The notes under the pieces were generated by a model. It ran no database searches and was not told the origin of the DNA. It saw only the letters and a program-made list of their open reading frames with translations. DNA of 59,532 bases from Piromyces finnis finn (lineage: Eukaryota; Fungi; Neocallimastigomycota): assembly GCA_002104945.1 (NCBI GenBank), contig MCFH01000102.1, positions 1 to 59,532 of the forward strand, in the 5' to 3' direction. The translations under genes were made by a program, and so were the position numbers. Below are positions 2,750-45,903 of the stretch, piece by piece; the stretch's first letter is position 1, and every line of letters begins with the position of its first letter.

Positions 2750-3560
2750 CATAAATCGGAGCTCTAAAATCTGTATTATTATTTTTATCTAATACTAATA
2801 CTATTATTAATTATAACATTTTCATATTTTTTTATTTATCATCACTTTCATCACTTTTATTGGGTCAATACTAATGTTTTTTTAAGATATAAAATTTTCT
2901 ACTACTAATTTTTCTAAATACTCAATTTCATTCTATTGTTTTTTCTTTAAAACTCATACCCATATATTTACTATAACTACATTTGCTATCACCTATATTT
3001 TTTATCATATAATTAATCTTCTAATTGGATTATTATTTGTTGCATTTTCATATAAAGTAGTTATACTATTTAATTTATTTGATTCAATTGACATTTATGT
3101 GTTTTTTTGTTGATAATAGAAAATAAAATCTATATCCATTATTTTAATACTTTTTTAACAGTCAAATTCATATACAATTTCAAATTTTGAAACTGGATAA
3201 CTTCCGTCAATTATTTATATTTGTTGTAAAACTTTATATCTTATGCTTAATTAAAATTATTCATTGTGTATATTAGTTTTTCTTGATTCTTCATCGGTTT
3301 TTCATATTTATATGAAGGGATATAAATAATTTTCATATAGCATCAAATCAAGCAATTGGAAATTAATAGATATTGGTTAGGTAAAGAAAGTAATACATAG
3401 TGTGAATCTAATTAGTATTTGATCACCTGAAAAATTAAAACATAGTAATAATTTTACAAATAATATTATCATAGGTATCAGGTATCTCTTTCATAGAACG
3501 TAATTTCTACTTTCTGTAATTTTTGTATGGATAGAAATAAAATAGTTACATTAGTAGTTT
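2750..3560 (-). pseudogene. Degenerate paralog of the 29638..31465 gene (putative NCLDV early transcription factor large subunit-like)
   Basis: About 3100-3510 aligns by eye at DNA level with about 30930-31310 (e.g. gaatctaattagtatttgat). Multiple stops and a 7-bp tandem duplication (aggtatc x2, about 3473-3486). Confidence 0.7.
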
Positions 3561-3948
3561 TTTACTACCTTTAAATGAATTGAAAATACTTAAATATAAA
3601 ATATAAGCCTCTCATGTAATAAGTATAATCTTTCTTATAAATTATATTATTTAATTTTATTTATATAAAAAATAAAAATTATTTTATTTATTTAATAACT
3701 TTACATTCAAATTAATACATGTATTATAGATTTATATAAATTTGTTAACTTTAATTTATCACAATTAAAAATATAAAAATCTTTTCTAATTATATAGTAA
3801 TTGAAAATACAGAAACATTAAAGTTAATAAATTTATTATATTTAATTCTACTAATATAATAAAAAATTAAAAAAAATAATTATATCATTAATTTATATAA
3901 TTTATATATTAAATACTAAGTAAATATATTATGTATATTATTCTATTT

Positions 3949-6900
3949 TTAATTGTCTTTGTTTATCCTTTCCACTACATGGTTTTTACTTCTTTTATTT
4001 CTTATCAATTTAATATGCACTTCTTTAAGATAGTTTTCCATTTTGACATTATTTTGTTGAGATGCATATTTCCATAATGAAACTTTATTATTATCATCAT
4101 CATAAATTTCAGTTTCGATATTCTTTAATCTATTGTTAATCATGATATTAATAATATTATAGCAGTCTAAGATTATAGAATACTTTAATAAATTACTTAT
4201 AAAATTTTCTTCTGTATAATCAATAAAAAGTTTTAAATAAGTTAATTTTGAATTTTCTTTTAATTTTTTAAACAATTTCTCAAATTCTTTTAAACTATAA
4301 ATATTCATTTTAGCTTTATTATCTATGAAACATTTCACAATATCTTCATTAATATTTTTTCTTGTTATGGCAAAATAAAATATAGAACATTTATTTTTGC
4401 CTTTTGAGCGAATAATATAATTAACATTAGCACCGTGTTTTATCAGTAATTTAAGTATTTCACAATTATTTTTAATTATAGCTTGAATTATTGGAATTTT
4501 TCCATTGACATAATTGATATTACCTTTGAAATACCTTAGTATCAATTTAAGAATATTTATATTTTCAGTTTCTATTGCCATATTTAAAGCGGAACATATA
4601 GCTTTTCCAATATTAATGTAATTTCTTCTTCCTTTTTTAATATATTTCAAAAACAATTTAGTATAATATACTAAATTTAGCTTTATTGAATAAAGTAAAG
4701 CGTTATCAAAATCGTCAATTTTAAATTCTTTACTTAACAAGTAATGAACCATTTTTTCAGACTCTTCCTCCTTTTCAATCATCATTCCCATAACTAACGG
4801 ATTTATATGAAACTTTAATTTATGAATATTAATATAATAATCTATACAATCTATGAAATCAAATTTATCATATAGATGGGATTGTCTGTTACAAATTATA
4901 ATTTTAAATAATTCTGTATTTGAATTGACATCCGAAAAATAATCTTTTAAATTTCTACTTCTACAACTTTTAAATATTTTATTTAATATCCCTTTTATAT
5001 TAAAAAAAATTATTCCAGTAATAATATTTTCAGATGAGATAAGATTAATAAATTTATCTGAATCAATACTGAGTAAATACAATATGGAATATTTATCCTC
5101 TTTCAATAAAGCATAATATAATATTAAATTTTTATATCTATCTATCATGTTTACATTATTTATATTTACATATTTTTTAATATCGAAATTCTCATTAAAT
5201 AAATATGCTTTTATAATATCATTATCAAACATACAATCAATGGTATAAAGTGTTGAATTACTATTATTATTGTTTCTTTCATTATAATGATATCTTAGAT
5301 GTCTATTATTATTATTTAATTTTAATCTTTTATTTTCATTTTCATCTTCAATAATAATTATTGTTTCTGTACTATTACGTTTATTCCTTTCTTCTATTGC
5401 TCTATTACTATTTACGTCACTAAAACAGTTTTTCTCAGTATTTTGATATTCATTTTCATTTTCATCATCGTCAATAATTATTGTTTCTGTTCTATTACGT
5501 TTATTCCTTTCTTCTATTGCTCTATTACTATTTACGTCACTAAAACAGTTTTTCTCAGTATTTTGATATTCATTTACATTTTCTTCATCATCAATAATTA
5601 TTATTGTTTCTGTTCTATTACGTTTATTCCTTTCTTCTATTGCTCTATTACTATTTACGTCACTAAAACAGTTTTTCTCAGTATTTTGATATTCATTTAC
5701 ATTTTCTTCATCATCAATAATTATTATTGTTTCTGTTTTATCATGCTTATTCTCTTTTTCAAATATTCTATTATTATTCACACCACTAAAGCAGTTTTTC
5801 TCAGTATTTTGATATGTAATTTTACTATTTTTGTTAGATTCATTTAAATAGATATTTGAACTATTTTTACATATTTTATTTTTTTTTATTAAATAATCAA
5901 AAATTATTTTATTTATAACATGATTATTATCCTCTAAAGATTTTTCTAGTATGGTTTTATTTTCGCGATTTCTTAAATTTAAATCAGCGCCATAATCCAA
6001 TAAAATTTTAAATAGACTATAATCTTGATTTAAATATTTTTCTTTAAATGAATTACAACCACAATGTCTGTAAGAAATAAATAATGGATATTCATCATAA
6101 CCATTACAATTACTATTGACATTAATTTGTTTATTAATTATTGGATGGAATAATAGACATTTAATCAATTCATGATTATTGTCTTTTATTCCATTAATAA
6201 ATAAAAGACCAATATTCTTTTCTTTATAGTCATTTTTTATTTTCATATATATTTTATCATTATTTTTGTTGAACATTATATTTTTATAAATGGCTTCAAG
6301 GTCCTTAATTTCAATAATAATGTTTTCTTTATCATACTTTTTTGGTGTCGAAATACCTAGTGATAATTCATCTAAATTAATTTTTAATAAGGATCCTATC
6401 ATCCTGATATATTTTTCTTTATTATCAACAAAAATATCATTTTCAATGGATTTTAAAATATATTTTAAATCTATGTACGATTTTTTAAAACTTTTATTTA
6501 AAAGAAATTTTGGAATAAGAATATTGATTATTTTTTCTTTATTATTATTATTTTTAATTAAAGATATTAATATTTCATTAATATCTATTTTATTAAAATT
6601 AAATGATTCATTAATGAAAAATGTGTTGCTGAATATTTTAATTTCATTAACATTATTAAAATTATATTTTACACTATTCATTAATAAATCTTGAATATTT
6701 ATATTATTAATAATTTTTAATTTTTTTTGCTTATTTAAAACATTAATAAGCATTCTTAAAATATTAGTATATTTGTTATAATATACTGAATTTATAATAT
6801 AATCAAATTTAACAGTATCATCTGGATATTCATTTGCAATTGTTTCAATAATATTTTCAAAATATTTATTATGTAAATGATTTTTATCCATTTTGTCAAT

Positions 6901-8091
6901 AATTTTTAATAATATAGTATCATAATTTATATAATAATTGCTATTATAAGAAAATAAAAAAAGTGATTTTAAAATACAATCTATAAATGAATATTTTTTA
7001 TTTTCGGCATAAAAAAGTAAAAGGTTATAAAAACTAATATTTTTAACAACATTTTCATTCATTTTTAAAAATTTTAATAACATTTCAATTATCCATATTT
7101 TAGATGAATTTGCTACATAGTATAATATGTTTTCAATAAATGAAATGTTATAATTTTCAAAATTATATTTTATAATATATTCTAATAAATTTAACTTATT
7201 TTCAACTCGACGTGTATAAGATACATCGCCAATAATATATTTATATAATTTCAATTTATTTAATATTTTCATGATTTCACTTGAACTTTTTTTGTCATAT
7301 TTTATTAATATGCTAATAGTTGGGTAATCGTAAGAGTCAACTTTTTTGTCGATATCCTTATATTCACAATTAAATTTTTCATAATTAAAAGTACGGTTAT
7401 AGATTTTTTCAGTAAGATTAATATCTGTTTTTTCACCGTATTTTAATTCATAAATTTGATTATTTGTTAAAGGAATCCTGTATTTAAAACAAGTTAAAAA
7501 TTTAATGATATAAATGAAATTTTTATCTTTTAATTTATAATTTAAAACACGCTTTAACATTTCTTCATTTTTGCTTTCAATCAACATTATAATAAAACTT
7601 TCAATATTTTTATCTAAGTTTTCATTATCAAAGTTTTCTAAAAATTTTAATATTTTAACTATATCAACTTTCTCAATATAATATTTTTGAATGAAGGATA
7701 TCAAATTTACCCCTTCGTTATTTACATAATTTGTATTAGCACCCATTCTCATTAAGGAATGTGCCAATAAAAATTGTTCTTTTATCATTGCATCAAATAA
7801 TGGTATTTTAACATCGCCATCTATTTTAAATGTATAGTTTAATTCTTTATAATCAAAATACCTGATAATGCATAAAATTATATTTTTTGTATTTTCACTT
7901 TCTTTTTCGACAGTTCCTATAGCACAAGTAAGAACGTCAAACTTATTATCTTGGTTCAATTTCATTCTAAATTTATTATAATTACTTTCATTTAATCTTT
8001 TTTCAAATGCTTGAGTATCAGTATTATTGTCAATACAATATTTAATGAATTCTATTAATTCATCTATTTTTTCTTTTAACATAGCAGCCAT
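3949..8091 (-). CDS. Large ankyrin-repeat protein (1380 aa) with internal tandem repeat
   Basis: Intact ORF with ankyrin motifs PLFDAMIKEQFLLAHSLMRMGANTNY, ILLDYGADLNLRN and PIIQAIIKNNCEILKLLIKHGANVNY. Confidence 0.88.
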   Translation of the reverse strand: MAAMLKEKIDELIEFIKYCIDNNTDTQAFEKRLNESNYNKFRMKLNQDNKFDVLTCAIGTVEKESENTKNIILCIIRYFDYKELNYTFKIDGDVKIPLFDAMIKEQFLLAHSLMRMGANTNYVNNEGVNLISFIQKYYIEKVDIVKILKFLENFDNENLDKNIESFIIMLIESKNEEMLKRVLNYKLKDKNFIYIIKFLTCFKYRIPLTNNQIYELKYGEKTDINLTEKIYNRTFNYEKFNCEYKDIDKKVDSYDYPTISILIKYDKKSSSEIMKILNKLKLYKYIIGDVSYTRRVENKLNLLEYIIKYNFENYNISFIENILYYVANSSKIWIIEMLLKFLKMNENVVKNISFYNLLLFYAENKKYSFIDCILKSLFLFSYNSNYYINYDTILLKIIDKMDKNHLHNKYFENIIETIANEYPDDTVKFDYIINSVYYNKYTNILRMLINVLNKQKKLKIINNINIQDLLMNSVKYNFNNVNEIKIFSNTFFINESFNFNKIDINEILISLIKNNNNKEKIINILIPKFLLNKSFKKSYIDLKYILKSIENDIFVDNKEKYIRMIGSLLKINLDELSLGISTPKKYDKENIIIEIKDLEAIYKNIMFNKNNDKIYMKIKNDYKEKNIGLLFINGIKDNNHELIKCLLFHPIINKQINVNSNCNGYDEYPLFISYRHCGCNSFKEKYLNQDYSLFKILLDYGADLNLRNRENKTILEKSLEDNNHVINKIIFDYLIKKNKICKNSSNIYLNESNKNSKITYQNTEKNCFSGVNNNRIFEKENKHDKTETIIIIDDEENVNEYQNTEKNCFSDVNSNRAIEERNKRNRTETIIIIDDEENVNEYQNTEKNCFSDVNSNRAIEERNKRNRTETIIIDDDENENEYQNTEKNCFSDVNSNRAIEERNKRNSTETIIIIEDENENKRLKLNNNNRHLRYHYNERNNNNSNSTLYTIDCMFDNDIIKAYLFNENFDIKKYVNINNVNMIDRYKNLILYYALLKEDKYSILYLLSIDSDKFINLISSENIITGIIFFNIKGILNKIFKSCRSRNLKDYFSDVNSNTELFKIIICNRQSHLYDKFDFIDCIDYYINIHKLKFHINPLVMGMMIEKEEESEKMVHYLLSKEFKIDDFDNALLYSIKLNLVYYTKLFLKYIKKGRRNYINIGKAICSALNMAIETENINILKLILRYFKGNINYVNGKIPIIQAIIKNNCEILKLLIKHGANVNYIIRSKGKNKCSIFYFAITRKNINEDIVKCFIDNKAKMNIYSLKEFEKLFKKLKENSKLTYLKLFIDYTEENFISNLLKYSIILDCYNIINIMINNRLKNIETEIYDDDNNKVSLWKYASQQNNVKMENYLKEVHIKLIRNKRSKNHVVERINKDN
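5335..5815 (-). repeat. Coding tandem repeat, about 4 units of 120-123 bp
   Basis: The unit marker tttctcagtattttgata recurs at periods of 120, 123 and 123 bp. It encodes YQNTEKNCFSDVNSNRAIEERNKRNRTETIII(I)DDEE. Confidence 0.95.
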
Positions 8092-8919
8092 GTTTATTAA
8101 TTTTTAATAATATGGAAAGAGTATAGTGCTTTTTAAAAAGATATATAACAATATATTTATCAATAATGCTAAATTATTGTTCTAACCTCTATAATTATGT
8201 TAATTTTTTATACTAAATAAAATAGGAAATTATATTATAATATATATGATAGGATTAGATTATTTCTTATTCTTATTATATAAATATAAAATAAAGAATA
8301 TTAAGTTTTAATATTTAATGTTACCATTTAACCTTTATTAAAAAATGGGAGAATCTTTACAATAAATTTACAATAAAGTTTTTATAAATTTTTAGAAATA
8401 AATATTAAAAAAAAATTAAATACATTAAAAATAAGTGAAAGATTTAAATTTTGACTTTTCAAAAAGTTTTAATAATTTACATGACTCTATAAAAATGATA
8501 ATTGTAAATTACAAAAATATTATTATCCATATGTTATGAAAAGTGATGTTTTTATCACAAATTTAAATCTTGGAGCTTGTTAATAATATAATTTAAATTA
8601 TTTCTTAATATTTTTATAAATATTTCATCTTTAAATAAAATAAAAGAACAGAAATACAAAAAAATATATACTTTCAATTAAACATTTACATTAATTATTA
8701 TAAAAACAAAAAAAAATTATTAAGTTATAAAGAAAAAATTAAGTTAAAATCCATAGAAAATAGCATTTATTAATTTCCCTATTATTTATATTAAAATATA
8801 GTATTTATTAAAAATATTTTTTCTGACTTTTTACCTGAAAAACTCCCAGTTTAAAATGTTTAAAAGAAGTAGAATTTTTTAAAAAAAGTCGTCAATGTTT
8901 AACTAAATTATTAAAAATT

Positions 8920-14250: not shown

Positions 14251-15290
14251 TTCTTGTTCCTTAAGGCAATACCATATTTAATAAAATTATTATAATCGTT
14301 AGCTCTAGAATTTTCTTCAATTTGGTTTATAGCTCCTTAACATTCTTTTAAAAGACAGATTTTGATAAAATTCTTATCTTCTTTTTTCTTCCTGTTCATA
14401 ATTTATTTTTTTCAAGGTATTTTTTTATTTTTTTTTAAAAAACATAACTTTAATTAAAATATATTTTTTTCTTTATTATTAAAATACTTTCCAATAATAA
14501 ATCCGAAATCATATCATCATATCTACCATATCTACTATTTTCTTCTGGAGTTAAATCCCTAATTTTTTAAAAACAAGAATATTTGTATTAATAACACTTG
14601 ATAAACATTTTCACACATTTTGAATTCATCATACATACTGTGCTTCAAGTGATATTCATTTAATTTTGATAAATATCATTTAAATTTTTATAATCTTTTT
14701 TAACATCTTTTTCAAAAAGACCATTAATAAAATTATATATTATTTTATCATTTGCTATTTCTAATTTATTTTCATAGTTTTTAATAAAGCAATAAAATTT
14801 TCTAAAATTTCACCATTTGTAATTTTAACATATTCATATTACCTTTAATGATTCGATTTAACATACTATTTTTATATTTTTTAATTTTACTTAAATTTTC
14901 TTTTTTTTCAGTTAATTTGGGTTTAACGGTAATTTATTTTTAAGATATTCAATAGCAGATTTGAAATCTTTAGATTCTTCATTTTTAAAATTTAAATAAA
15001 AAACAGGATATTTATAAAATCCCCTCATGCTTTTTCCATTTTTAGAAACTTCTAAACTATCAAATAAATCATTTCTTAAATTTTTCTATTAATAGGCTTT
15101 TCAAAGAATTCTTGAATCATTTTTAAATTAAAACTTTTTCCAAATTGACTTGGTTGTACTCTCAAATACACATCTTTATAATTGTTAATAAAATTTGGTA
15201 TCATCTAGTTTTATCAACAAAATAACAAAATAGTAATCATTTATATTAGAATCTTTATAAAATTCTCCAGAATATATTTCTTTTGGCATT
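14250..15290 (-). pseudogene. AAA-ATPase-like (PF09820-type) plus PD-(D/E)XK nuclease (PF08011/DUF1703-type) pseudogene
   Basis: MPKEIYSGE...YFVDKTR...QPSQFGKSFNL (decayed RPRRFGKS Walker A), ENVYQVLLIQIF...EENSRYGRYD and GAINQIEEN...FIKYGIA. Stops, frameshifts and an internal deletion. Confidence 0.8.
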
Positions 15291-15517
15291 TCCTAAAAGA
15301 ATTGAAAGAAAAATTCATAAAAGTTTTAAATAGAAAAGATGATGATATAAAATATTATTGCGAATTAATTGGAAATTCAAAAAAAGGTATTGAAAAGTAC
15401 ATTAAAAAAATGACGCAAACTTTAGAAGATCTTTTTGTAAATCTGGAAAATAATAATATTAAAAATATTGAACTTTCAATGTCTAATTTTAAGCGTTAAT
15501 AGTAATTAACGAAAAAA

Positions 15518-15848: not shown

Positions 15849-15849
15849 G

Positions 15850-16190
15850 ATAAAGTCCTGCTTCTGAAAGGCACAACTATAAGTCAAGATGAAGAGTCTC
15901 ATTCATTCAGAATCATTATAGATAATTTCTCTCCTGTATATCAGATCATATACTAATCCCTATTAATTTTAAATCTATTCCTATGGATGATTTTTCTAAT
16001 GACTTTAAGGTTCCTAAGAAAATTCTGAAATAGAATAGATTGAATAAAATATATTGAGGAAAAGGAATCGATACACAGTCCTAATAAATCCCACATACTT
16101 TCATCAAAACTCAATGATCCTGTTATTTCAACAGATGAACTTTCCAAAGAATTTACTTCAGCTGCTCTTTCAATTGAAGATGTATTAAAT
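15850..16190 (+). mobile_element. Non-LTR retrotransposon (LINE) endonuclease fragment
   Basis: Reverse-complement match to about 21460-21750; decayed SDH endonuclease motif near 15935-15950. Confidence 0.75.
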
Positions 16191-17491
16191 ATTGTGTATT
16201 TATATGTTTTTCCTGCTAATATAAAATAAAATTTTTCGTTATTATTTTTCTTACTTTTATCTTCATATGAAATAAATAAAGCTTTATTAAAAAAATGAAA
16301 ACTAAAATAATTATCAATTTTTTTTTAATTAAATAGATTTCATAATATCTGTTTTTCATGGAAAAGCTGAATTTTTTTAAATAATTTTACATTTATACTA
16401 ATTATAAAATTATTATCTATATGTCCATAATTATAATGATTTAAAAAATTTCATAATAATTATTAATAACATCACTATTAATATTTTGTTAAAGTATAAC
16501 TTTCTTTTTGTTTTTAAATTAAAAGTGAAGGTCGTTATTATTTCTAACTAAACTTCTAATAAATATTAATGATAATTAAACCTTAATCATGTTTAATGAT
16601 TTATAATATAATTTATGTAATATCAAGTTAAATAATTGGTGTTAAAATAAAATATAATAAATATGTCTTATTTAAAATTGTAGGATATTTTAAATATATT
16701 TTACTTTTCATGAAAATTCAATATTTTTACTATTTGTTACATAAATCTATTTTTTTATAGAGTATGCAAATAATTGATAAAATTTTATAAAAAAAATGAT
16801 AAAACTTTAAAATAATTTTATGGCTATTTTTTCCTATAAGAAAAGTATTCAAATGGAATGTAAAAAAAAAAGTGAAAAAAATTTGAAAAAATTAAAACTT
16901 CAAAAAATAAAAGCATGAATTCAATTCTTTATTAATATTTCAATTACTCTTTATAAAATGACTTTATTAATATTTATTTTCTTGATAAAATAATATCAAA
17001 ACGTTGAGTTATATCATGTGTATATCATTAAAATAATACTTTTTTATTAATTTATGATATTTATACATATTATATAATAATTAAATTAATAAGCTTTTTC
17101 AATTTTTATAATTTCTTTTTATTTAAACTTTTTTCAAGTAAAATTTTAAAAAATATTGAAATTTTTTGAAAAATTTTCAAAGTTTGAATTTTTCATTAAA
17201 TTTTTTAATTAATTAATTAATTAATTATTCATCGTCCATTTAAAAAAATTTGATCTGAAAAAAAAAATGCATTTGAACATTGACACAAAAAAACTTAAAC
17301 TTTTTTTTAAAATTTTTACACTTAAGGAAATACTTTATTTTTTATAATTATTTTTTATTATATTTTATTTATTTTTTATTTATATTTTATTCTTAAAAAT
17401 GAATTATTACATGTTTTTTTTTATAAATATAAATAATAAAAATATATAAAACAAAAACTAAAAAGAAAAAAGAATAAAAAATAATTATTAT

Positions 17492-19144
17492 TTATACATT
17501 AAAAATCCATTGATCATGATCAATATATCTATTAAAATATTTAAGAAATTCATGGTTTTTTATTGTTGTAGATAATATGTAAGTATTTTTATCATCTCCT
17601 CCTGCTTTTTTTAATTCTTTTAAAATATATTTTACCTTTTGTTCTGATGATCTTTTATCAATAACAAAGAGATTTTCAATAATTTTATAGTTGTCGTTCT
17701 TCAAGGCGAAAGTATACCATTCATCTTGAAAATCGTTGTAATGAAGAAATTCCTTTACCAATAATAAAAATGTTTTATTCTTCTTTTCTTTTATTAATAA
17801 TTTTAATATATATTGAGGTATATTTAACTTTTCAATTTTTTTAAATTTATTTTTTAATATTTCAATAATGTAATCGAAATTTTCATATGAAAAGTTTTTT
17901 TGATGAATTAAAAATTGTATCACATTGTTGAAGGAATTGTCCTTATCCAAAAATCTATAATTAATATCCGCACCTTTAGAAATAAGAAAGGTGCACACAT
18001 CTCTTCTATTTATTAATAATGTATAAATGACTAAAGGTACTGATTCATTAATTAATGAATTTGGAATCTCATAATTGAAATTGGTGTATGAGAATAAGCT
18101 TATTATTTTTTTAAGTGAATCAATAGAAAATCCTGAAGTAATACAATTTGTTAATACGTCATAATCTGAAGAGTTTATATCGCTTATTAACATTTCATTT
18201 TCTTGATAAAAATAAAATATTCTTTCCATATTTCCGTTCTTTATGAATTGACTTAATTCCATTCTTTTCTTAATCAAAATTTTATTCAAATATCTGTTAA
18301 GATGATTAATATCTAATATATTATTTAAGAAAATATTTTTATACTTATAGTTAATTATGAATTCATATAATTTAAGGGAGAATCCAGGATATATTATATC
18401 ATTATTATTATCCATTATGAATTCAATTTTTTCTCTAATTGAACTTGGAATATCATAACATGAAAAAAATTTTAATTGATCAAATGAACTACAATAAATA
18501 CACCTATAGTACCATTGATATGGTACATCAAAATTTCTTTCATTAATAATTATTTTATCAAATTGATCTTTCGATATGCTTTTTTTTGATTGGTATATTT
18601 TAAGTAATTTAATAACAAAGTTTTTATCGCACTTATATTTGATATATTTGGATGCTAAATTGAAGTTAAAACTATAATTGTAAATATAATCTTTAATCTC
18701 CATTATATTCCAATTTTTGTTTAAAAGATATGAAAGAGTTTTAGTAGTTAGTAAATTTTTTTCAATTAATAATTTGACTATATTAATATTGTGTTGAGTA
18801 AAATTAATATCGCCCCCTTTGCTGATAATGAAATCTGCAATTTTAAAATGATTGTTAGCAATTGCAGAGTATAATGGGGACTTTATTTCACCATTTTTGA
18901 AAATGATGAACTTGTTAAGCGGATAATTCTTTTTTTCAATTAATAAATCTAAATATGCAATTGGAACATTGTATTCAATTGCAGAAATGACCTCATCAAA
19001 ATCTTTTTCCTCAATTAAATGGTTTGGTTGAATCATTTCATTTGATACTTCTATATCCTCAAATAACTCTACATCTGAAGTGTAAGAATTATTTGACAAG
19101 ATCATTGTTGAAGTTTCAGTACTATCAATTTCAAAAGATGACAT
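17492..19144 (-). CDS. Ankyrin-repeat protein (550 aa)
   Basis: Intact ORF with ankyrin motifs SPLYSAIANNHFKIADFIISKGGDINF and VCTFLISKGADINY. Confidence 0.9.
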   Translation of the reverse strand: MSSFEIDSTETSTMILSNNSYTSDVELFEDIEVSNEMIQPNHLIEEKDFDEVISAIEYNVPIAYLDLLIEKKNYPLNKFIIFKNGEIKSPLYSAIANNHFKIADFIISKGGDINFTQHNINIVKLLIEKNLLTTKTLSYLLNKNWNIMEIKDYIYNYSFNFNLASKYIKYKCDKNFVIKLLKIYQSKKSISKDQFDKIIINERNFDVPYQWYYRCIYCSSFDQLKFFSCYDIPSSIREKIEFIMDNNNDIIYPGFSLKLYEFIINYKYKNIFLNNILDINHLNRYLNKILIKKRMELSQFIKNGNMERIFYFYQENEMLISDINSSDYDVLTNCITSGFSIDSLKKIISLFSYTNFNYEIPNSLINESVPLVIYTLLINRRDVCTFLISKGADINYRFLDKDNSFNNVIQFLIHQKNFSYENFDYIIEILKNKFKKIEKLNIPQYILKLLIKEKKNKTFLLLVKEFLHYNDFQDEWYTFALKNDNYKIIENLFVIDKRSSEQKVKYILKELKKAGGDDKNTYILSTTIKNHEFLKYFNRYIDHDQWIFNV

Positions 19145-19320
19145 TTTTTTTATAATTTAAACGATTTTTATTGTGCTTACGTGTTTTTTAAAAATAATAA
19201 TTTATTTTGTTAAATTGTAAAAACAAGACAATAAATTTAAAAAATAAAAATGATAACAATATAATTATATTTACAATAAATAACATTTTAAACTTTTTTT
19301 AATAATTAATATTCATTGAT

Positions 19321-20509: not shown

Positions 20510-22860
20510 TTTTGGATTGAAATGAAAAGACTGACACTTTCTTCCCTTTTACGAAATCTAAATTGTTTGTCTAATGAAATTATTTTTAAGACCATATTTT
20601 AAAATTCTAGTGGTGGCAATTTTCGAGATCAACTTAATACCATTATTGATAAGTGATATGTCTTGATAATTATCACAATCTGTCAAGTCTTCCTTCTTAG
20701 GAATAGAAACAATATTGGATTCATAAATTATTCATAAATTATCCATCCCAAATACGGTTGAATAAAATTTAAACCATTAGTATCAATATCTGAAGTGACA
20801 TTATCAGAAGAATTATTATTTGTAACATTATTAGAATCATTATTTGAAGAAATTTATACCTTGTAAAAATTAATTGGAACACCATCCAAACCCGATGCTT
20901 TATAATTAGGAGTAGAGAGGATAGCTGACTTGACTTTATTAATACTAATATCTTGGCTGATATTCCATTTATCAAACATAGAGAGTGAAAAACGCTTATT
21001 TATTGATTCTTCATACCAATGCTCCAAATCAAGACTTACACCATTTGGATCAGATGCAAGATTTTCGAAATAGTCATGTTAAACCTCTAGTTGTTCTTTC
21101 GTAACAACAACTAAATCTCCACTTTTATTTTTAGTTGGTTGAGCAGTAAAGAAAGTATCTTTTCCAAATTTTGCAGTTTTCTTGATCCATTTCCAGGCCT
21201 TCTTTGGATTATGCCTTTTTATATACTCACATCCTTTTTTAATCCAATTAAGTTCCTATAATTATTACATCTTTTGTGAATGTAATTGATGAGCTTAGGG
21301 TAGATTTTAATCCTTTTAATAAATTCTTCTATACCATAAACTCTTTCTTTTTTAAATCTCCTATACAGCTTCATTTTGATTTTTTGGAGATTAAAAATTT
21401 GTTGTGAAATATGAAATGAAGATTTTATAACATTATTTTATAAAATAATACTGAGCTCATCCGCAATTGAAAAAGCAGATGAAGTAAACTCATTGGAAAG
21501 TTCATCTGTAGAAACATTAGGATCGTTGAGTTTTGCTGAAAGTATTTGGAATTTATTATGACTGAGAATAGATTCCTTTTCTTCAAAACATTTTAATCTA
21601 TTCTATTTCAGAATTTTCATAGGAACATTAAAGTCATTAGAAAAATCATCCATAAGAATAATTTTATCATTAATAAGGAGTGGCTTATGATCTTATACAG
21701 GATAAAAATCATCTATAAATGATCCTGAGTGAATAAGATCTTTTATCTTCGAATTGACATGAGCATAATCAATGTCAGGTGATTGATTACTTCAAGTCCA
21801 AGAGATAGAAGAATCTTTAAGTGGAAGTACTTCCCAATCTCCTAATTCATTAGATGATAACCAGTTGGATAATATTACTTTAGGTATATTAAAATCACCA
21901 ACAAGAATCGATGGATGATATGAATGAAATTGCAATCACAAGCGTACTTCTAACTTTGTATGATCAACATAGATGTAGTAATGATAATGAGGCATATAAA
22001 AATATCCAATCGAGCATTTGAATCTATTCCAAAGGCTAAAAGTATAAATAGAAATAATATACTTTCCTGAGTAGTTTTCAAGTGAGGCTTGTCACGAATT
22101 GTAAATACCTAAATATAAACTTCTCATGCTGGCCACTGATTCATCAGCTTTATTGAACATGTGTCTATGGTTTCGTAAAGTAACACGACAAGAATACTCT
22201 GTATTCGATCCATAACCATTATCAGTTTCTTGAAAACATAAAAATAATAGTTTGAAAATAGTTGTGAAATAACTAATATTATATCTTTTTTCGTGATTCC
22301 ACCCATTGGTATTCTAACTATGACAAAACAAAAAGTTATTAGGCTTGTTGGATGAGAAAGAATTGTTGCTATTATTATTATTATAGTCATCATTATTAAT
22401 GGATGATGCAACAGAGGAATTAGTTGAACTATTATTAGATGGCTGTGTAACTGAAGAACTATCAACTATTGAACTGTTATCGGAGTTGATTTAACTATCA
22501 GAAATAACTGTTGAATGTTGAGGCTGAAACTGTGTTTGTTGTAGTTCTGGAATATCTTCATGTTGAAAATCTTGTTGCTGAACTTGTTGAAGTTGGATTT
22601 GATTAGATTGATGATATGAATATTAATAAGATTGTTGAATTGACTGTTGAATTGTTTGTTGATGTTCATTAAAAACTAAAAATTTATGTTTGAGTGAAGA
22701 AAAAAATGCATTTGTGATTCCTTCTACTACGAGCTGAAAAGGAAATTGAAGCAATGGAAAGTTTCTTTCTTAAGATGTGTAAGATTTTATTCCAGTCTTT
22801 CGTTGAACCATGAACCTTGACTAAAAAAAGTGATCATTGAAATTCTTATATTGATATTTA
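20510..22860 (-). mobile_element. Decayed LINE: ORF1 end, APE endonuclease and RT N-terminus, 3'-truncated
   Basis: ILVGDFN, DIDY and DHKPL (APE endonuclease), then KASGLDGVPINFYK, PKKEDLTDCDNY and FRKREE (RT N-terminal domains). Many stops. Confidence 0.85.
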
Positions 22861-25499: not shown

Positions 25500-27070
25500 A
25501 TAAAAAATTAATTTTCTAATAAATATGATTTAATTGCATATTCATAATATTTTATATTATTCAAATACGAAAATATAAAGTGTACAAGCGGAATTAAATT
25601 ATTTTTTATTTTATAACAGTAATAAAAAAATTTCAACGTCATTATCTGTAAAACCAAAATACATTGTTGTCCAGTTAGGTGATGTAATTGTAAATTCATT
25701 AAATTCATTTTGAAAATTAAAATCTAGATCTCTTATATACTCATTGATAGGTAAAATAAATAAATTAAATTAATTGAACTTTTAATAGAATAATAATATT
25801 ATGTTATTTGTTATATTAAAAAAGTTTTAAAATAAGAAGAAAAATAAAAAGGCTGTTAATTAAATCAATATTTCTTTCTTCATTATAATGTTTTATTTAT
25901 AACATTAAATTAATTATTTTATTTTATAATCTTCTTTTCTTTCTTGTTGTTTTTCTTATTTCTTTTTTAGTATTATTTACGGTACTCTTTGTTATTCTTG
26001 TTCTTCCTCTTGTTCTTTTTCTTGCTTATGTTTTTGTTGTTGTCTTTGTAATTTTAACATATTTCTTATTATCTTCAATGATTTGATTTAACATACTATT
26101 TTTATATATTTTAATTTGATTTAAACTTTCATCTTTTTCAGTTGATTTGGGCTCATCTACTTAAATTCAAACTTTTTCAAATCGTCTTGGTCGTACTATC
26201 AAATATACATTTCTATCATTGTTAATAAAAGTTTGTATCATTCTAGTTTTATCAACAAAATAAAACTTATCAAGATCAACATCTATATACGCTTCTCCAG
26301 AATATACTTTTTTTGGCATTTCTTTTCTTTTGAATTTCTCACCATAATTTATTTCATAAATTACATCACATTCTTCTTTATAGATAGCTATTCCATATTT
26401 AATAATTTTTTCATTTTTTTTATTTAAGCTTTTTCCATTAAATATTAATTCTTCATTATTATCCAATGCTTCATAACAACTTTTATTAAATTCAACATTT
26501 TTTAGTTTTTCTTTCATTATAAAATAAATATTTTTTGATGAAAATTTACTATTATCACCGTCATTTTGATATTTCTTATCAACAAATAATAATTCACGAA
26601 TATTGCTTTTTTCATTAAAATTATTCTTAGTAATAATTTTATAATCGTCTTCTAAACATAACAATGAATAGATATTAGCATAGCATAATAATTATCTAAA
26701 AAGCTAGATTGGTTATCATAATAGTTGACTATATTATTAATTTTACTTTCAAGAAATTCTTTTATTCTTTCTTCATCATAATATTCTATAAAATTAATTC
26801 CATTAATTATTTCATTGTTACTTTTATACAAATTCTTTTTCCATTCAATAAACTTATCTTTAATTAATTCTTCAATTACTTTATTTCTTATTATTAATTT
26901 TTTATTATTTTCATTTTCTGTATTAATATCAATTAGATAATCATATTCAATAAATAATGACCAAATAATACAAAGTTCAATTTCTGTATTTATACACTTT
27001 TATTCATCATCATTCGATTAAATAATTAAAACATTAATAAATATAATATATTATATATATAATATATTCA
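25500..27070 (-). pseudogene. AAA-ATPase-like/PD-(D/E)XK pseudogene, apparently tandem-fused units
   Basis: IIKYGIAIYKEECDV (nuclease end) runs in frame into MPKKVYSGE...YFVDKTRMI...RPRRFEKV (AAA start). YFGFTDNDVE lies near 25640. 26080-26150 matches 14850-14920. Confidence 0.8.
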
Positions 27071-28149: not shown

Positions 28150-29029
28150 TATATTTAAAATTGTGTTGTTTTTGTAAAGTATTCCTTGTAATAAAAACAT
28201 CCCATAATAAATTCACTTTTTAATATGCTATTGACTGAATAGATTATGTAATCTGTATTTATAAAAGATAAACCCTTAATATAGAAAGGTATATTAACAT
28301 CCACAATAAGTATAATTCTAATGTATCTTACTTTACACTATTAATAAAATATTCAAAATTCATAGTTTTAATAATATTAAAATAATGATATAACTAAAGA
28401 TTAATATTACAAGATATTAGATATTGTTTCCCCTCCCACTTTCTTATTCATGCCTATTTAAATAAAAAAGATTACATTCTATTTTCCAAATTGTATGTAC
28501 AACAATATATATATTTATTGTGTGCTACATAATGTATATATTGTGGCTTATACCTTTGATCTATTACAATACATTAATCATTGTAATACATTCTCAAAGT
28601 TTTTTTTTATTTAATCAGCATTTAAAAAAGTGGAAGAAAAGAATCCTTTTCTCCAATGAATTATACTATAATCCATTTTATTATGGGTTAATTTATATAA
28701 TTCTTTCAATTCATTATTATCATTTGTATTTAATTTGCGGAAATAACTTAATGCTGATTGTGTTACAGGTTTACCAACTGATTGAGCTGCTAAAATACCA
28801 ACATGAGTATTTTACGAGACTTGATTTTATCCACAATTATTTTAGTAAACTTATCACAGTCAATTTCTTCTGCTTTGATTTTTTTCTTTAAATAATTTCT
28901 TACTTTATTATTTATTTGATCAATATAAGGAATCAATCTTTTATTTTCTTTAAAATTTTTAGAAATTTCGTTACATATATAATCAATATCTTCAACAGAA
29001 AAATATTGTATATTTTGAGATTCTTCCAT
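28150..29029 (-). pseudogene. Divergent RNA polymerase largest-subunit (RPB1/beta') C-terminal part, stand-alone and frameshifted; putatively viral
   Basis: After a frameshift near 28810 the frame reads NTHVGILAAQSVGKPVTQSALSYFR (motif at 28758-28802), matching the conserved VGxLAAQSIGEPxTQxTLNTFH. The ATG at 29029 has an in-frame stop 6 codons upstream. Confidence 0.72.
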
Positions 29030-29637: not shown

Positions 29638-31465
29638 CTAAAAAATCATATAAATAGAATTATTTTTGAAAGATGAATAGGTAGATCCATCTAAATTTCT
29701 TTTTAATATTAAATAAGGTTTATTAAGGATAGTTGATTTTAATATTTCTATGGATGCTTTACATGGATAATAAACTTCATTATCCCATACACCATAAATA
29801 ATAACTTTTTTATTGTTTTCATCCATAATACTATAATGATATGCAGTTATATTTTTAATATTTTTACATAAAAAAGAAAATGATGGTAGTGTATTGTATA
29901 ATTTATCATTATCTTTTATTATCGGTATTGTTGGTATTATTTCTGAATAAATCGATCTCCATAAATATACCTTTTTATCTGGAAATTCCTTTTCTGTTAT
30001 TAAAACTGCTTTATTATCTGAAACTTATTGTTTAATGTATTTAGTTAATGTAGCATTATCTATGATTGAAATTGAATTTTTTTAAACATAGAAAATATAG
30101 CTTGAACAAAATCATCATTAAAATTGAACAAATTCTTATCTGAACTTACTACATATTCATATCTATAATTAGGAAGTGTATATAATTTACATGTATTTAA
30201 CATTATTATTAAAAAGGAAAAAGAAGAATTACAATTGTAGACATAATCAAAAACACAATATGGATATATACTCATATTATTATCTACTGAAAAAGAAAGT
30301 ATATTAATATCATTGTAATTGTAATTTTCATTTATTAATTTTAATTGTTTATTCTTAAACTTTTCTTTTACACAATTTATTAATTCCTTCTGACTAGGAA
30401 TATTAATATGTTTATTTCATTTAGAGCATATTATAAATTTATTATTTATTTCTGGAATATCAAAATATTGTCTATATAAACCTTGTAATTCATAACCATA
30501 AGAAAAGGAAATTTTCCTTTACAATGTTTGTCTAATTTATATGCTATATTAAAATAAACAGATTTTTCTTTTTCTTTGTACTTTCTTATCACTTTAACAC
30601 ATTAAGGAACAACATTTGATTCTTATTCTAAATCAAATAATATCTTTTTATTATGAAATACAAAGTTATTATCAGTAGAATTTTTATTTGTTGAAAGAAT
30701 AATTTTATATCCTGAATTTTCTGGTGATCTATAATAATTATTATACCACTGTACATACGGTAAATTATTCTTAATACATTTTTCTTTATCAGCAATTACT
30801 GGTAATATCTTATCCTTATTATAAAAATATCTAGTATAATATTTTCCAAATAATCGATTATAATTTATTTTTAATGGAATATTTAATTCTTTATTTTTTT
30901 TATAATAATTTACATGAAAATCAATATACAATAAATAAAGATATTTTAATATTATTTTAACAGTCATATACATATACCATTCTAATTCTTGAAATTGGAT
31001 ATTTTCTGTAAATTGTTTATATTTATTATATAGTTTCATATTTAATGACTGATTAAAGATATTTATTGTATATACCAATTTTTCTTTATTTTTTATTATA
31101 TCTTCATTTTCATCGGTATATATATAGGGATATAAAGCATTTTCATATAACATCAAATCAAACAATTGAAAATTTATATTTATTGGATAAGTAAAAGAAA
31201 CAATACTTGGTTTGAATCTAATTAGTATTTGATTACTCGAATAATTTAAACATGGTAATAATTTACAAATAATATTATCATAAGTATCTCTTTCATAAAA
31301 AGTTATTTTATTTCCAGTGATTCTTATACTATCATGACAACCTTTAATAATTATGAAATTATCTGAATCTTTAACATCCTTATTTTTATTAATAATTATT
31401 ATTTTATGTTCATTAGATAAAAAATGTTTATCTAGTAAATTACGGATTAATTCAATAATATCCAT
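29638..31465 (-). pseudogene. Putative NCLDV early transcription factor large subunit (A7L/VETF-L)-like pseudogene
   Basis: The 280-aa ORF continues through stops into 30060..30275 and 29638..29826. YTRY...LPVI...YYRSP...NVVP*CVK resembles from memory the YxR...P...YYxCP...PCC.K block. Intronless and adjacent to the RPB1 fragment. Confidence 0.45.
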
Positions 31466-33209: not shown

Positions 33210-33452
33210 ACTAATAATAATTAATGATATTAATTATTTTAATATTTAATCAGAATAATATATTGTTTTTTTAAAATATATATTTATTTAAATAAATATT
33301 ATATTAATAAAAATAATTTTTTAATATAATCATTATTATTATTTAATTAATATTATATATTTATAAATAATAATAATATTTATTATTTTAAAATGATTAA
33401 TTATTTATTATTATTTATAAAAATAATATATATTTGTGTAGTATTGTTAAAA

Positions 33453-33702
33453 ATGAAATTATTGTGTATTAATATTTTATTTTTATTAATTAGAAATGTA
33501 TTTAGTACTAAATATCATGGTACATATTTAGAATTAGATAATTTTCCAAAAAAAAGCATATTTATTTGCCTATAATACTTGTGATAAAATGTATTTATGT
33601 AAAAAAAATGAAGGATATAAATGGTATGCTGCAGGAGATGTATTAAATGATTGTTATCAAAAAAGTAAAAAAAAAAGTGGTTCATTTGGAGCAGTATTTA
33701 GA
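33453..33702 (+). pseudogene. 5' fragment of a secreted protein gene, apparently interrupted at about 33703
   Basis: Signal-peptide-like MKLLCINILFLLIRNVFS, a frameshift, then CDKMYLCKKNEGYKWYAAGDVLNDCY, followed by an abrupt switch to more GC-rich non-coding DNA. Confidence 0.45.
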
Positions 33703-34759
33703 GTAAATCCCCCCTTTTGAACGTGCCTTCATTTATTTAATAAATGGAGTTTCTCAAGGGGCTCTACTCATACTCATGGTACTGAAAGAGTAGAAAGAAT
33801 AAAATCCAAGTATTGCGCAATGGATGCTTGGTTAGTCTTTATTTGGAAATATTGTTAGGACTAAGCTCATGGTACTGGGCGAATAGAGTCGATAATTTGA
33901 GTGTTAGTTGTTATATCATATATCCCTTACACCTTCAACTTATTTTAGATAGTAGTTGCTTTAACAACTTTTATAACATATTATTTTAAACTTAAAATTG
34001 TTTGATTCGGTAGTATTAAATACTGATTTTGAATATTTTTTCATTTCATTTTTATTTTAGCTTTCATTGATAATTTGTTATCCCAGTTTACTACTTATTC
34101 TCTTTGTTCTTTTATTCCTTTTTTATTCTCTATATATTGATTAGTCAGATAGTTTTGTTTTCTTTCAGTTAGTTTGTTATTCCTTTCATTTATTCTTGAG
34201 TTTCGTGTGGGGTGCGGCTTTCATTACTATAATCATATTTAATCTTTTTATTTTTTTCTATTTCTATTTTTATTATTTTCGAGGGGCGCGGCTTTTTTTA
34301 TTTTTCTTTTATGATTTTATATGATTCAAGTAATATCTTTTTTATTTTTTATTTTTTGTAATTCACAATCACTCGGTACCTATTTCATTCTAAAAGTCAA
34401 TGGAAAATGCCCGCTAAAAGCCATGTTACTTATACACCCACTTTCTAAAAAACTCCCAATCTCTAGTAAAATATCTTGGAAATTCATTAATAAACTCAAA
34501 AACAATAGATCATACAAAAACAAACGATCTATCAAATCTACTACTAGTCCACTCTCTGACGATTTCTATTTTAGTCATTTAAATTAAATTTGTTTTAAAA
34601 TTATTTAAATTATTAATTTTTAAGGGTTACACAATTAATTATAAATATAAAATTGAAAGAGTATAAATTTTTTTCTTAATTACAAATAAAATAATAATAA
34701 AATTAATAAAACAATAAGCTAATACTAGTTTTTATTTAAATATATTATAAATTTAAATT

Positions 34760-36395
34760 ATGAATAGTAGTAATATTACGAATGAGAATAAAAAAAAGTA
34801 TGTAAGAAATTTAATTATTGATTCATTTAATATTTTCTTAAGTAAAAATACAAAAAAAGATTTAGAAGAATATAATGTAGAAGATAGAAATCTGGATAGA
34901 ATAGGAAATTTAGATATAAGGATTCCAAGAAATTTAGAAACATACCATGAATTTCATATGCAAAGTTGTCGAAATCCGGAAATCCAGTTATTAAGTTTAG
35001 CAAAAAGTTATAATAGAGCTATCAATAATAATTATAATAATAAAATGTTTCCTGATCTAAATTCGTTTAAACTTAAATTTTCAGACGACATATTAAATTT
35101 TGAAGATTCTGGTTATGAAGATGCAAACCTTAAAATTACTGAAAATCTTGATGAATTAAACTCTGCAAAAACAGAATATAAAAACAATGTAGTCGATATG
35201 TTTTCACATTATTTGATTAAAAAGTATGATTCGAAATTATTTAGAATGAGAGATGTTGAAAATATACAAAAAGAAATTAATGAATTTAATGAAAAATTAG
35301 CCATGGCTTTAGATCGAGAAACTATTTTTTGTAAAGATTTAAATGACCTCGCTAAAAAATTAAACGAAGATAATAATTATGACAATGATAAGGTATTAAA
35401 ATCAATTAATGATATATTAACCCATCCATTTAATGTTGAAAGTGGCTATAATCAAATGATAAAACAAATAAATAAAAATTACTTTGATATTAAAGGTAAT
35501 AACCATAAATATGTCACTGGTAGAAATTATGATATATCGAATTATGAAAATGTAAATGATTTCGATAAATTGAATGGGCCACAAAGAACAGCCGTTAAAA
35601 ATATTATTTATTAATCACCATTGTATTTAAAAAATTTAAATACCGATAAAAATAGTCCCTATGCCTATTTAGAAAAAACATTTGCCGCATTCAAAGATCA
35701 AGTATTAGAGAATATATTACCGATTGCTTCCGAATGTTCCAATATATTTAAAGAATTAAATCCAAATGTTTATGTCATTGCACCAAAAAAATACACAATT
35801 AACAAAAAGGAAAGAGAAATAGATTTTGAAAATGAAAAAGTTTATTATATTAATAGTAATGGAAACTTGTAGTAATAGAAAAAGAAGAAACAAATAAGAA
35901 AAATAAAACGGAGACAAATTTTAAAAAAATAAAAGATTACCTAATTCCAAAAAATATTACGACAGTTTATATTGTTCAAACAAAAAAAGAAGAAAACTTA
36001 AATTCATCACTTGGAAATCGCAATCTTTTTGTGGTATATAGTGATTATAATTGCAAAATAGAAAAAGCCGACAGTGAAGGAAAATTAGATACAAAAAAAG
36101 ATTATCGTAAAGTACATTTATGTGAAGAAGTGGAAGTTGTTTTTGCCAAAGTAAATAATCCAAACTACGTAAAAGATTCCAATGTAGAGTGTGAAAAAAA
36201 TAAGTATTTTGATATAAATGATAATGGAAAAATTTACCTTCATAGTGACGAGGTAGAAAAGCTAACATTTTCCTTTGAGAATGACAATAATGAATATGAA
36301 ATAAAGTTAAGTAATATTGAAATAGATACAAAAAATAAAATTAAAAGAAAAGAAAAGGATAATAAAAAACAAAAAAATAAAAGTAAAAATAAAAA

Positions 36396-36408
<13 letters not shown>
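34760..36408 (+). pseudogene. About 550-codon gene of unknown function with one in-frame stop and one frameshift
   Basis: ORFs 34760..35614 and 35621..35872 share a frame across a single TAA. A frameshift near 35866 continues LVVIEKEE... into 36031..36408. Confidence 0.7.
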
Positions 36409-36433
<25 letters not shown>

Positions 36434-36540
36434 AAACATAATAATAATAAACATAATAATAATAATAATAATAAACATAATAATAATAAACATAATAATA
36501 ATAATAATAAACATAATAATAATAATAATAATAATAAAAA
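36385..36540. repeat. Compound (AAAAAT)/(AAAT)/(AAT)n microsatellite
   Basis: Directly visible at the 3' end of the 34760..36408 gene. Confidence 0.9.
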
Positions 36541-38129
36541 ATATTAAAGAATCGAAAATTTTAATATGAAACATATATATTTAAAGAATAAATATTTAAT
36601 TTTTTTTTTTTTTTGCACCTACAAAAGTTACACTCTGACTGCACATACAACATTATATTGAGTAAATTAATTATATAAATAAATAGAATTATAATGAAAT
36701 ATTTTTAATAATTTAATACTGCTAAATTTATTCAATTAAAATAATGTTTCAGTCTGGATTTTACTATGGATAATTATTAAGAAGTATCGAAGTATCATCA
36801 CTGATTTATTATTATGAAAGTGACACTCAATTTCGCCGGCTTCAGATGTCATGACACAATGACACATGACAACAAACAAATACAGCAACAAGTATAACAA
36901 AAAGGTACATTTATAAAAAAAAAAACATTAACAATATTTGCAACAGCTACAATAAATATAACATTAGAATGAGGTGTGATTGTTACGTGACTAATTGATT
37001 ATGTAGAGAGAATCATGTGATCGTATAATCATTAAATCATACAATAACAAACATTAATGTACATGGAAATACAATAAAAGTTTTTATGTAGATTATTATT
37101 GCTTTCATTATTTACTTTTTATCCAGAAAAATACAGCATAAAATATAAATTACTTATAATGCAATATAATAATATTTAGTGATTGTTACCATCAAAAATA
37201 TAAATATAAATATATAATATTTTTTTAAATGGAATTTTAATTATTATTTTTTTTTCTTTGTGTTTTGTTTTATTTATATTTATTAATAGAAAATAAGTTA
37301 TATTTTTGCTTTATTTTAATACCTATATTAAAGTTTTTGTTTTTTTTTTTATTTTTGTTGAAACTTTAGTATGACAAGGTAGTACTTAGCTATAACTAGG
37401 AGCTAGTTATTATTTTTCTAAGAACTATAACTAGGTTAATTCTTTTAATGATGCTACTACGTTAAATCAAAATGTTAAAAAGATTATATATACCTATATA
37501 TTTCTTATTATTAATTATTTTTACATAAATATTTTTATATTATAAAATTCCTATAATATAATATAATTGAATATCAATTATGTAATCTAATGTATTCATA
37601 ATATATGAATAATAATTGAATAGGATATAATATATTTTATTTTACATTTTAAATGAAATATTACTATATAAGGAAAAAGTAATGTAATACAAATGAGTAT
37701 TACAATAATGAATAAATACTAATATATAATATTAATATTTAAGAATGTAATGAAATATGTACATTAATTGTATAACTAATATATAAATAATGTATTATAA
37801 TATATATCAACTATTATTATTATTATGAAATATTATATAAAAATTTTTAAATATGAAATTTAGCATTTTAAATAATAAAAATTATTTTAAATATGACTAA
37901 TATGTAGCTAAACATATTAATTTCATATCAATATCATTCAGTTAGGAAATGATAATAAGGATAAGAAAAAGTGCTTCAATAGAAAATAATGATAATAATT
38001 AAAAATTAGAATATTAAGAACTATAGTTAGATAATTAATATACAATTGAGACAAATAAGACAATGTAAATATCTATATGTAATCAACATTTCATATAGAT
38101 ATTTATTTATGATAATAATGTTGATTACA

Positions 38130-38300
38130 TATAGATATGCCACAAAATATTTCATTATGAGATGTGATCATATAGCCCGATTCCTAGAAAAATATATAAT
38201 TGATAGAAATGACACCTTTGCCATTTCCTATCGATGAACTTTATTCATTATATAAAAATTGGTTTAAACAATGTTTCAACCAGAGCTATCAATTACAGTT
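38130..38300 (+). pseudogene. D5-like primase-helicase C-terminal (winged-helix) fragment
   Basis: ATKYFIMRCDHIARFLEKYIIDRNDTF / FPIDELYSLYKNWFKQC (frameshift near 38220) fits the D-x-I-x-x-F...LYxxYxxW pattern. Confidence 0.5.
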
Positions 38301-38905
38301 TGGAAGATTTTCGTATGGATATAACTAAATACAATATTAGAATAGATAACGTGATGACATCAGATTCCGATCGTTAAGTTGAATCTATCATTAGTTATCG
38401 ATTATTAAATTAAAATTTAATTATTATTTAAAAAATAAAATAGTATATAGTTATTATTTTTACATATATTTAAATTTAATAATTCTAAAATAAATTACTT
38501 ATAGCAAAATTTTATTAATTTTCTCTTATATATAAAGTATAATAAAATTAAATATTAAAATAATATGTTAAATAATACAATACATTTGTTTAATATTTAC
38601 TATTTTTCTAATCTATTATTAATAATATTAGTGATAATAATATTATATTTTTTTAATCATGGATATAATTTAAAATTTATCATAGTTAAATTTTTTCATT
38701 ATTTTTATTAATATATATGTTCATTATATAAGCAAATAATTACTTCATAAATCTATTACATTAAATATATTAAATGCAATTTTTTTAAAAATAATATTAT
38801 TAATAAAATTAAAAATATTGAAAATATTAAAATAGTACTAAATATGAAATTAAATTGCTGTATATTTTTTAAAATTATATATATTGATATTAAATTTATT
38901 GGATA

Positions 38906-39130
38906 TTATTCATATAGAGTTGTGTGAATACCAATGGAATCTAAATAGGAATTCGTAATATTAAAACTATTTGAAATAGTTAAAGATTTTGTTGTGGAAT
39001 TACAACATGTTTCGGATATACTTATTGAATGAGAAGTATTACAATATTTAATTTCCATAATATCTGTATTATTTCGAAACATGTCTTTTAATATTGCATT
39101 GATCATGCATCCTTTTCCATTTCACCTTAT
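38906..39130 (-). pseudogene. D5-like SF3 helicase core fragment
   Basis: *NGKGCMINAILKDMF (decayed GxNGKS Walker A; TGA at 39122-39124 in place of GGA), SISET (Walker-B-like) and TKSLT (cf. KxLTG). Confidence 0.4.
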
Positions 39131-45871: not shown

Positions 45872-45901
45872 ATTGTTATAATTACTTTTACTTCCAATAT
45901 T

Positions 45902-45903
45902 TT

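Follow-up and report, generated by a model that had tools for sequence, protein, structure and literature searches.

One question raised by the Piromyces finnis contig MCFH01000102.1 (59,532 bp, all of which was analysed and is here called the window) is the origin of several broken genes lying among its ankyrin and retrotransposon sequences. The first-pass annotation, made from the sequence alone, took them for an old, fragmented and partly duplicated endogenous giant DNA virus. The window carries remnants of RPB1 (its C-half, RP1c), RPB2, VETF-large and the D5 helicase, all core transcription or replication genes of the Nucleocytoviricota. Very probably an integrated fundsalphavirus, one of a group of Nucleocytoviricota-related elements known from anaerobic gut fungi, left these dead, scattered remains: RPB2 and D5 are represented by their ends, RP1c by its start and VETF-large by two pieces. 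This copy is considered dead: each gene is truncated or interrupted, and the pieces cannot encode working enzymes.

The remnants were located by tblastn using intact relatives as queries, labelled P0014 (RP1c), P0006 (VETF-large), P0066 (RPB2) and the D5 of contig L004. The main segments of all four genes score 50-311 bits, whereas 20 locally shuffled windows gave no more than 23-27 bits, and real remnants were recovered at all of the loci first named. Stop-masked window frames compared with Pfam, NCBIfam and PHROGs reveal RPB1 (E 6e-5) and, weakly, Rpb2_7 (E 0.049), with no match for VETF or D5; PDB and phage searches with the window fragments gave nothing significant. The pieces lack introns relative to their homologues, as had been claimed. 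Composition does not discriminate them from host genes, since their GC content is 19-28% and that of the host genes about 22%. The nearest named relatives are P. finnis proteins at 84-91% identity, from which an anaerobic gut fungus is indicated as the host, in agreement with the fungal setting first proposed.

The RPB1 remnant occupies 28,662-29,029 (-) and corresponds to the 5′ part of RP1c (approximately residues 1-122 of 439), including the trigger-loop region. Homology to P0014 (439 aa) is confined to 29,011-28,662 and split between two frames, which show 60% and 73% identity (E 3e-37), with one frameshift near 28,810; the rest of the gene is missing. The Pfam motif RNA_pol_Rpb1_5 (PF04998, E 6e-5) lies at 28.80 kb. 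Five homologues, all with PF04998, were found among 327 candidates of 185-590 aa, and four of these have 430-500 aa and begin about 70 residues ahead of the motif. They are therefore stand-alone C-halves of a split RPB1, and by homology the window piece is the 5′ end of such a stand-alone gene. An RPB1 C-terminal piece had been placed at 28.2-29.0 kb; the portion at 29,029-28,662 stands through its match to P0014, while the coding-looking sequence directly past the break (28.2-28.66 kb) matched nothing.

The C-terminus of RPB2 (its zinc-binding end) lies at 38,906-39,126 (-) and converges with the C-terminal 91 residues of a D5 (SF3) helicase at 38,139-38,410 (+) across an AT-rich, low-complexity spacer of about 500 bp (38,411-38,905). 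The RPB2 piece at 39,103-38,909 represents the last 65 residues, with 92% identity to P0066 (1074 aa; Pfam Rpb2_3/6/7) and 88-91% to P. finnis P0065 and P0067; a GEMEKD motif is found in a second frame at approximately 39,126-39,106. Searches with this piece yielded four RPB2 proteins among 112 candidates. The D5 piece reads in three frames with one stop and is 71-77% identical to residues 505-595 of the L004 D5 (E 2.5e-20), the remainder being missing. Contig L004 (SUTQ01000041.1; 5,134 bp, 29% GC), the single locus returned by a scan of prokaryote genomes, belongs to a Methanosphaera metagenome-assembled genome (MAG). Its RPB2 is likewise convergent with an intact 595-aa D5 (3,162-4,946, -), which carries Pfam D5_N (E 5e-10) and matches C962R of African swine fever virus (ASFV) and vaccinia D5. 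A blastn alignment of L004 2462-3422 with window 39,100-38,151 (68% over 991 columns, E 1e-63) spans the RPB2 end, a spacer of the same length and the D5 end, and so places the window D5 on the + strand. Of the D5 pieces originally read at 38.1-39.1 kb, that at 38,139-38,410 remains; 39,103-38,909 (-) belongs to RPB2. Two GNGKG words resembling a Walker A motif, at 39.1 and 38.2 kb (-), were rejected as D5, being off-frame or wrong-strand readings.

L004 has probably been mis-binned, because its D5 clusters with proteins of Neocallimastix californiae, N. lanati and N. 'constans'. The MAG gave no VETF match, and its single RP1c-like and single PolB matches were both taken as archaeal. The contig itself is annotated as encoding an archaeal hypothetical protein. 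In the L004 D5, D5_N begins at residue 150 and Pfam detects no primase domain (ASFV C962R is approximately 960 aa), so that this protein may be a primase-less D5.

VETF-large is present as a pseudogene at 29,641-31,465 (-), which P0006 matches in three frames at 59-71% identity. Near its 5′ end, within the predicted TBP-like part, some 127 codons have been lost in frame, and the gene has also acquired two frameshifts and four in-frame stops. Its 280-aa open reading frame (ORF; 31,465-30,626) retrieved 11 longer homologues among 2807 candidates, four named from P. finnis and seven metagenomic. A second, more decayed fragment at 3,142-3,527 (-), equivalent to roughly residues 187-301 of P0006 (tblastn E 5e-26), shares 76% nucleotide identity over 396 nt with the first copy (30,942-31,328). 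Two copies had been proposed, and tblastn supports both, at 31,465-29,641 and about 3,527-3,142; within the coding-looking stretch directly past the second break (2,700-3,140), 2.8-3.1 kb matched nothing. Third codon positions account for 36 of the 89 differences between the copies (0.40; 0.34 over a gappier alignment), compared with 124 of 220 (0.56) for a pair of intact RPB2 genes. The differences thus appear nearer to neutral than those of the intact pair, consistent with a duplication of the gene after its death or with a separate copy that decayed long ago, and a local duplication is plausible. In a tree of 13 VETF relatives the first copy groups with P0002 (99/96) and P0008 (100/100), both from P. 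finnis, and is separated from P0003 and P0009.

The identity of this family was approached through an AlphaFold2 model of the intact protein, built with nine relatives (pLDDT 50.7, best at residues 1-320); the ESM Atlas had offered only leads below 0.9 for the VETF ORF. In BFVD, Foldseek ranked Tunisvirus VETF-large first (E 9.9e-10), followed by iridovirus, marseillevirus and pithovirus proteins, and the named entries among the 46 matches at E<=0.001 are nearly all VETF-large or uncharacterised proteins of large DNA viruses. Within PDB, TBPs and vaccinia 7AMV_K (Z 7.2, rmsd 5.2, 177 aligned) come out on top, in keeping with the TBP-like domain described for VETF-l (PMC12917281). The model thus identifies the family as VETF-large, as the first-pass annotation had suspected. 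The assignment rests on consistent ranking, because TM-scores are low (about 0.2) and the Z-score is middling.

That annotation missed that the lineage had already been published for Neocallimastigomycota, including P. finnis, as the fundsalphaviruses (Gong, Zhang and Han 2020, PMC7017919). DNA polymerase (DNAP) copies were reported from N. californiae (26), P. finnis (6), A. robustus (4), Piromyces E2 (4) and Pecoramyces (1), together with shared genes for D5, a D6/D11-like SNF2 helicase, SAM methyltransferase, RPB2, RPB5, RP1n and RP1c; the family also carries PolB and UDG. It groups with irido-, asco-, marseille- and pitho-like viruses and stands beside Pithovirus in the DNAP tree; in one of the two published RPB1 trees the fungal clade lies apart from the Pimascovirales (PMC7017919). 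The maps of Fig. S2 in that paper give the order RP1n-(SAM)-RPB2-D5-POL-RP1c(-helicase) for scaffolds MCFH01000069, 89 and 83. Our nearest named RPB2 relatives lie on P. finnis contigs of 246,453 bp (P0065) and 127,315 bp (P0067 and P0073), and the VETF relatives P0003 and P0009 on contigs of 168,386 and 127,315 bp; 246,453, 127,315 and 168,386 bp are the exact sizes of those three scaffolds. From this we conclude that the window very probably contains a decayed member of the fundsalphavirus lineage. The host group is the same, D5, RPB2 and a split RPB1 are shared, RPB2 adjoins D5, the order RPB2, D5 ... RP1c is kept, and stops, frameshifts and retrotransposon neighbours occur at published and window loci alike. 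VETF-large is not named for these elements in the available text of PMC7017919, where 'Pox_VERT_large' appears only in the maps of reference viruses. Relative to what that text holds, the VETF-large gene, the clusters of RNA polymerase subunits, the intact metagenomic relatives and the hints of a 40-55 kb unit are new.

Several points weigh against this assignment. No PolB remnant was detected in the window (by Pfam on part of the frames and by tblastn with an archaeal PolB, not the element's own), although PolB is the family's defining gene. The best PDB sequence matches of intact P0014 (45 bits) and P0066 (219 bits) are cellular, namely archaeal and Pol II subunits; ASFV and vaccinia subunits gave weaker or no matches, and no entry from the Pimascovirales appeared. 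VETF-large has no Pfam or PDB sequence match, its model is of moderate confidence, and its tree of 13 relatives held no viral references. The relatives' contigs were equated with the published scaffolds by equal size in bp, not by DNA, and the 59,532-bp contig is not among the loci mapped in PMC7017919. Finally, host-type genes (32.5-36.4 kb) now separate D5 from VETF and RP1c, and the pieces may therefore come from more than one insertion. As to the remaining family genes, RP1n, the D6/D11 helicase, SAM methyltransferase and RPB5 gave no Pfam match in the frames scanned, no close queries having been used.

Is the lineage itself extinct? Intact copies, the search for which had been suggested from the outset, were found in Neocallimastix assemblies and in metagenomes. 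The cluster of RP1c proteins around P0015 numbers 57; the 15 listed all derive from N. lanati or N. 'constans', 12 of them are full length (500-503 aa), and 12 of the 13 aligned, with two short members left out, show 99-100% identity. An RPB2 cluster comprises 83 members, and among the 15 listed 10 of the 11 aligned are at 99-100% identity, four having been left out. Two N. 'constans' contigs (137,409 and 308,190 bp) each carry subunits repeated at a distance of 16 accession numbers, and one P. finnis scaffold bears two same-order copies 54 kb apart (DNAP at 61,193 and 115,070; PMC7017919). Intact P0014, P0066 and P0006 were found on 47, 38 and 32 contigs, the longest of which is 42,490 bp for all three and probably represents one element. 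Repeat spacing and contig sizes hint at a unit of approximately 40-55 kb. With respect to the original description, a decayed and fragmented relative of the Nucleocytoviricota is upheld by the four genes and their lesions, and partial duplication is plausible, but 'giant' and purely 'old' are doubtful because of this unit size and the near-identical intact copies in relatives. Gene-sized contigs were also encountered: L001 has an intact RPB2 and may be a transcript, and a JGI scan returned three gene-sized loci for RPB2 and no match for VETF. The RPB2 of the gene-sized contig L002 (90-3,123, +) has an in-frame stop and, at 37% identity to P0066, is by its divergence a second lineage.

We tentatively propose, at somewhat less than even chance, that the fundsalphaviruses of Neocallimastigomycetes are alive, as a branch of the Pimascovirales that has shrunk to about 40-55 kb and 15-25 genes, lacks a capsid and retains its own RNA polymerase, VETF, PolB and D5; it would be multi-copy and either integrating or plasmid-like, with the window as a dead older copy. 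Neither a double jelly-roll major capsid protein (MCP) nor an A32 ATPase was found in the window frames scanned by Pfam, and the MCP and A32 trees available from PMC7017919 show no entry from Neocallimastigomycota although 41 DNAP copies are given for them. A divergent capsid could, to be sure, escape sequence searches as VETF-large did, which weighs against the capsid-less part. Against activity, scans of IMG/VR found no relative and so no free viral contig there, and haplotigs or duplications of host DNA can also yield near-identical copies. PMC7017919 treats the fundsalphaviruses as fossils and, in the text available, offers neither an element size nor evidence of activity. No follow-up on them or on a capsid-less form was found in a literature search covering mostly non-subscription papers, and the available text of the N. 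'constans' genome paper (PMC12341934) mentions no viruses in the genome.

It is possible, if rather unlikely, that the intact form is instead a conventional large virus (>100 kb, with capsid and packaging ATPase) which integrated long ago and of which only a core block survives or can be recognised. The Nucleocytoviricota gene set would suit such an origin, the published relatives are true viruses (PMC7017919), and a capsid gene might go unnoticed just as VETF-large did by Pfam. The same-order P. finnis copies only 54 kb apart, the subunits repeated 16 gene models apart in N. 'constans', and the MCP and A32 trees lacking Neocallimastigomycota despite the 41 DNAP copies argue for something smaller. 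Equally improbable in our view is that the many copies reflect passive segmental or subtelomeric duplication of host DNA plus uncollapsed haplotigs, with no autonomous replication. Many copies do lie on short contigs (18-190 kb) of repeat-rich assemblies, and the window VETF copies differ in a nearly neutral manner (0.40 versus 0.56 at third positions). Against passive duplication, RP1c has stayed full length in 12 of the 15 members listed, and metagenomes contain several divergent intact VETF lineages at 45-84% identity, which imply purifying selection on the element.

Two further origins concern the pieces themselves. That they are host Pol I/II/III pseudogenes mixed with unrelated, horizontally acquired fragments is very improbable: the cellular PDB matches of P0014 and P0066 would be expected on such a view, but their scores are low, RP1c is a stand-alone half gene, a VETF-large fold and D5 accompany it, and L004 preserves the RPB2-D5 arrangement. 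It is scarcely credible that the pieces derive from a Polinton or from a pGKL2-like cytoplasmic linear plasmid of the yeast type. Such an element would share the AT-richness and lack of introns, and yeast linear elements do carry an RNA polymerase of their own; it is, however, fused and reduced, their PolB is protein-primed and they are not known to carry D5, whereas the remnants here include D5 and VETF-large, and RPB2 in its intact form is a full subunit of its own (1074 aa). Polintons are not known to have a multisubunit RNA polymerase, and the window contains remnants of both RPB1 and RPB2. The early exclusion of Polintons and yeast linear plasmids was thus sound, and the DNAP tree of PMC7017919, with the fundsalphavirus PolB beside Pithovirus, also speaks against them.

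If the window is a dead fundsalphavirus, the gene content suggests that the intact form likely copies and transcribes its own DNA with its own enzymes, and the presence of VETF-large makes a poxvirus-style early transcription system likely in the lineage. By analogy with poxviruses, VETF-large, probably with the D6/D11-like helicase as small subunit, would bind the element's own promoters and recruit the split RPB1/RPB2 polymerase, while PolB, D5 and UDG would replicate the DNA. Copies would enter host chromosomes repeatedly and then decay; the window copy would come from an older sub-lineage and have been fragmented through deletions, frameshifts and rearrangement amid ankyrin, AAA-ATPase-like and retrotransposon sequences. 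The likeness to the poxvirus system (VETF-l/s, vRNAP; PDB 7AMV) lies in the TBP-like domain, the own multisubunit polymerase and D5, whereas identity is only 9%, neither Rap94 nor a capping enzyme was seen here, and the function is predicted by fold alone.

Among known viruses the closest resemblance is to the Pimascovirales (marseille-, irido-, asco- and pitho-like), which supply the best structural matches of VETF-large and, in the order given in the text of PMC7017919, neighbour the fundsalphaviruses in the DNAP, RPB2, D5, SAM and helicase trees. Most of their VETF-large models measure 980-1500 aa, compared with approximately 730 here; the L004 D5 has 595 aa and no primase domain by Pfam; and they possess virions and genomes of at least 100 kb (PMC7017919). 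The Mycodnaviridae are likewise endogenous Nucleocytoviricota of early-diverging fungi, but they are recognised through the major capsid protein (PMC13533422) and placed near Imitervirales/Algavirales (PMC13524828), whereas the VETF fold matches favour Pimascovirales. The main text and searchable supplements of PMC13533422 do not mention Neocallimastix, Piromyces or fundsalphaviruses.

One consequence is that viral genes are present among those annotated as 'RNA polymerase' or 'hypothetical' in anaerobic fungi, and that one contig of an archaeal MAG is viral as well. The intact, near-identical copies in cultured Neocallimastix make it testable, with existing cultures and reads, whether gut fungi harbour a dsDNA virus, or a mobile element of viral origin, that is still active; on the capsid-less reading proposed above, a giant virus would have turned into a giant transposon spreading in these fungi.

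The remainder of the window is AT-rich (GC 13-37%) and contains ankyrin genes, AAA-ATPase-like and copia fragments, pieces of nonribosomal peptide synthetase (NRPS) and ABC transporter genes, and two Ty3/gypsy ORFs. Ankyrin-repeat genes lie at 3-1,292, 3,949-8,103 and 17,492-19,156 (-), the first and third being paralogues (68% nucleotide identity), and AAA-ATPase-like (PF09820) fragments and related repeats at 15,123-15,292, 15,886-16,324, 21,458-21,749 and 26,161-26,999; genes of both kinds also flank several published fundsalphavirus loci (PMC7017919). At about 15.5-15.9 kb one of the PF09820-type repeats is bordered by a long TAG/TAA-type microsatellite. No informative terminal repeats were found within 26.5-40 kb. 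An orphan gene at 34,757-36,408 (+) is split into three ORFs, and a spliced 461-aa model (P0110) is on record; with 14 representative relatives, no Pfam family and a helical low-confidence model (pLDDT 38), it was not counted as viral. NRPS-like ORFs with adenylation, carrier and condensation domains occur in several pieces at 39,879-46,012 (-) and 46,167-47,423 (+), adjoined by an ABCA-type transporter. A 4,051-bp Ty3/gypsy gag-pol stretch is present twice at 100% identity (50,197-54,247 and 55,482-59,532), the second reaching the contig end, and is either a very recent copy or an assembly artefact.

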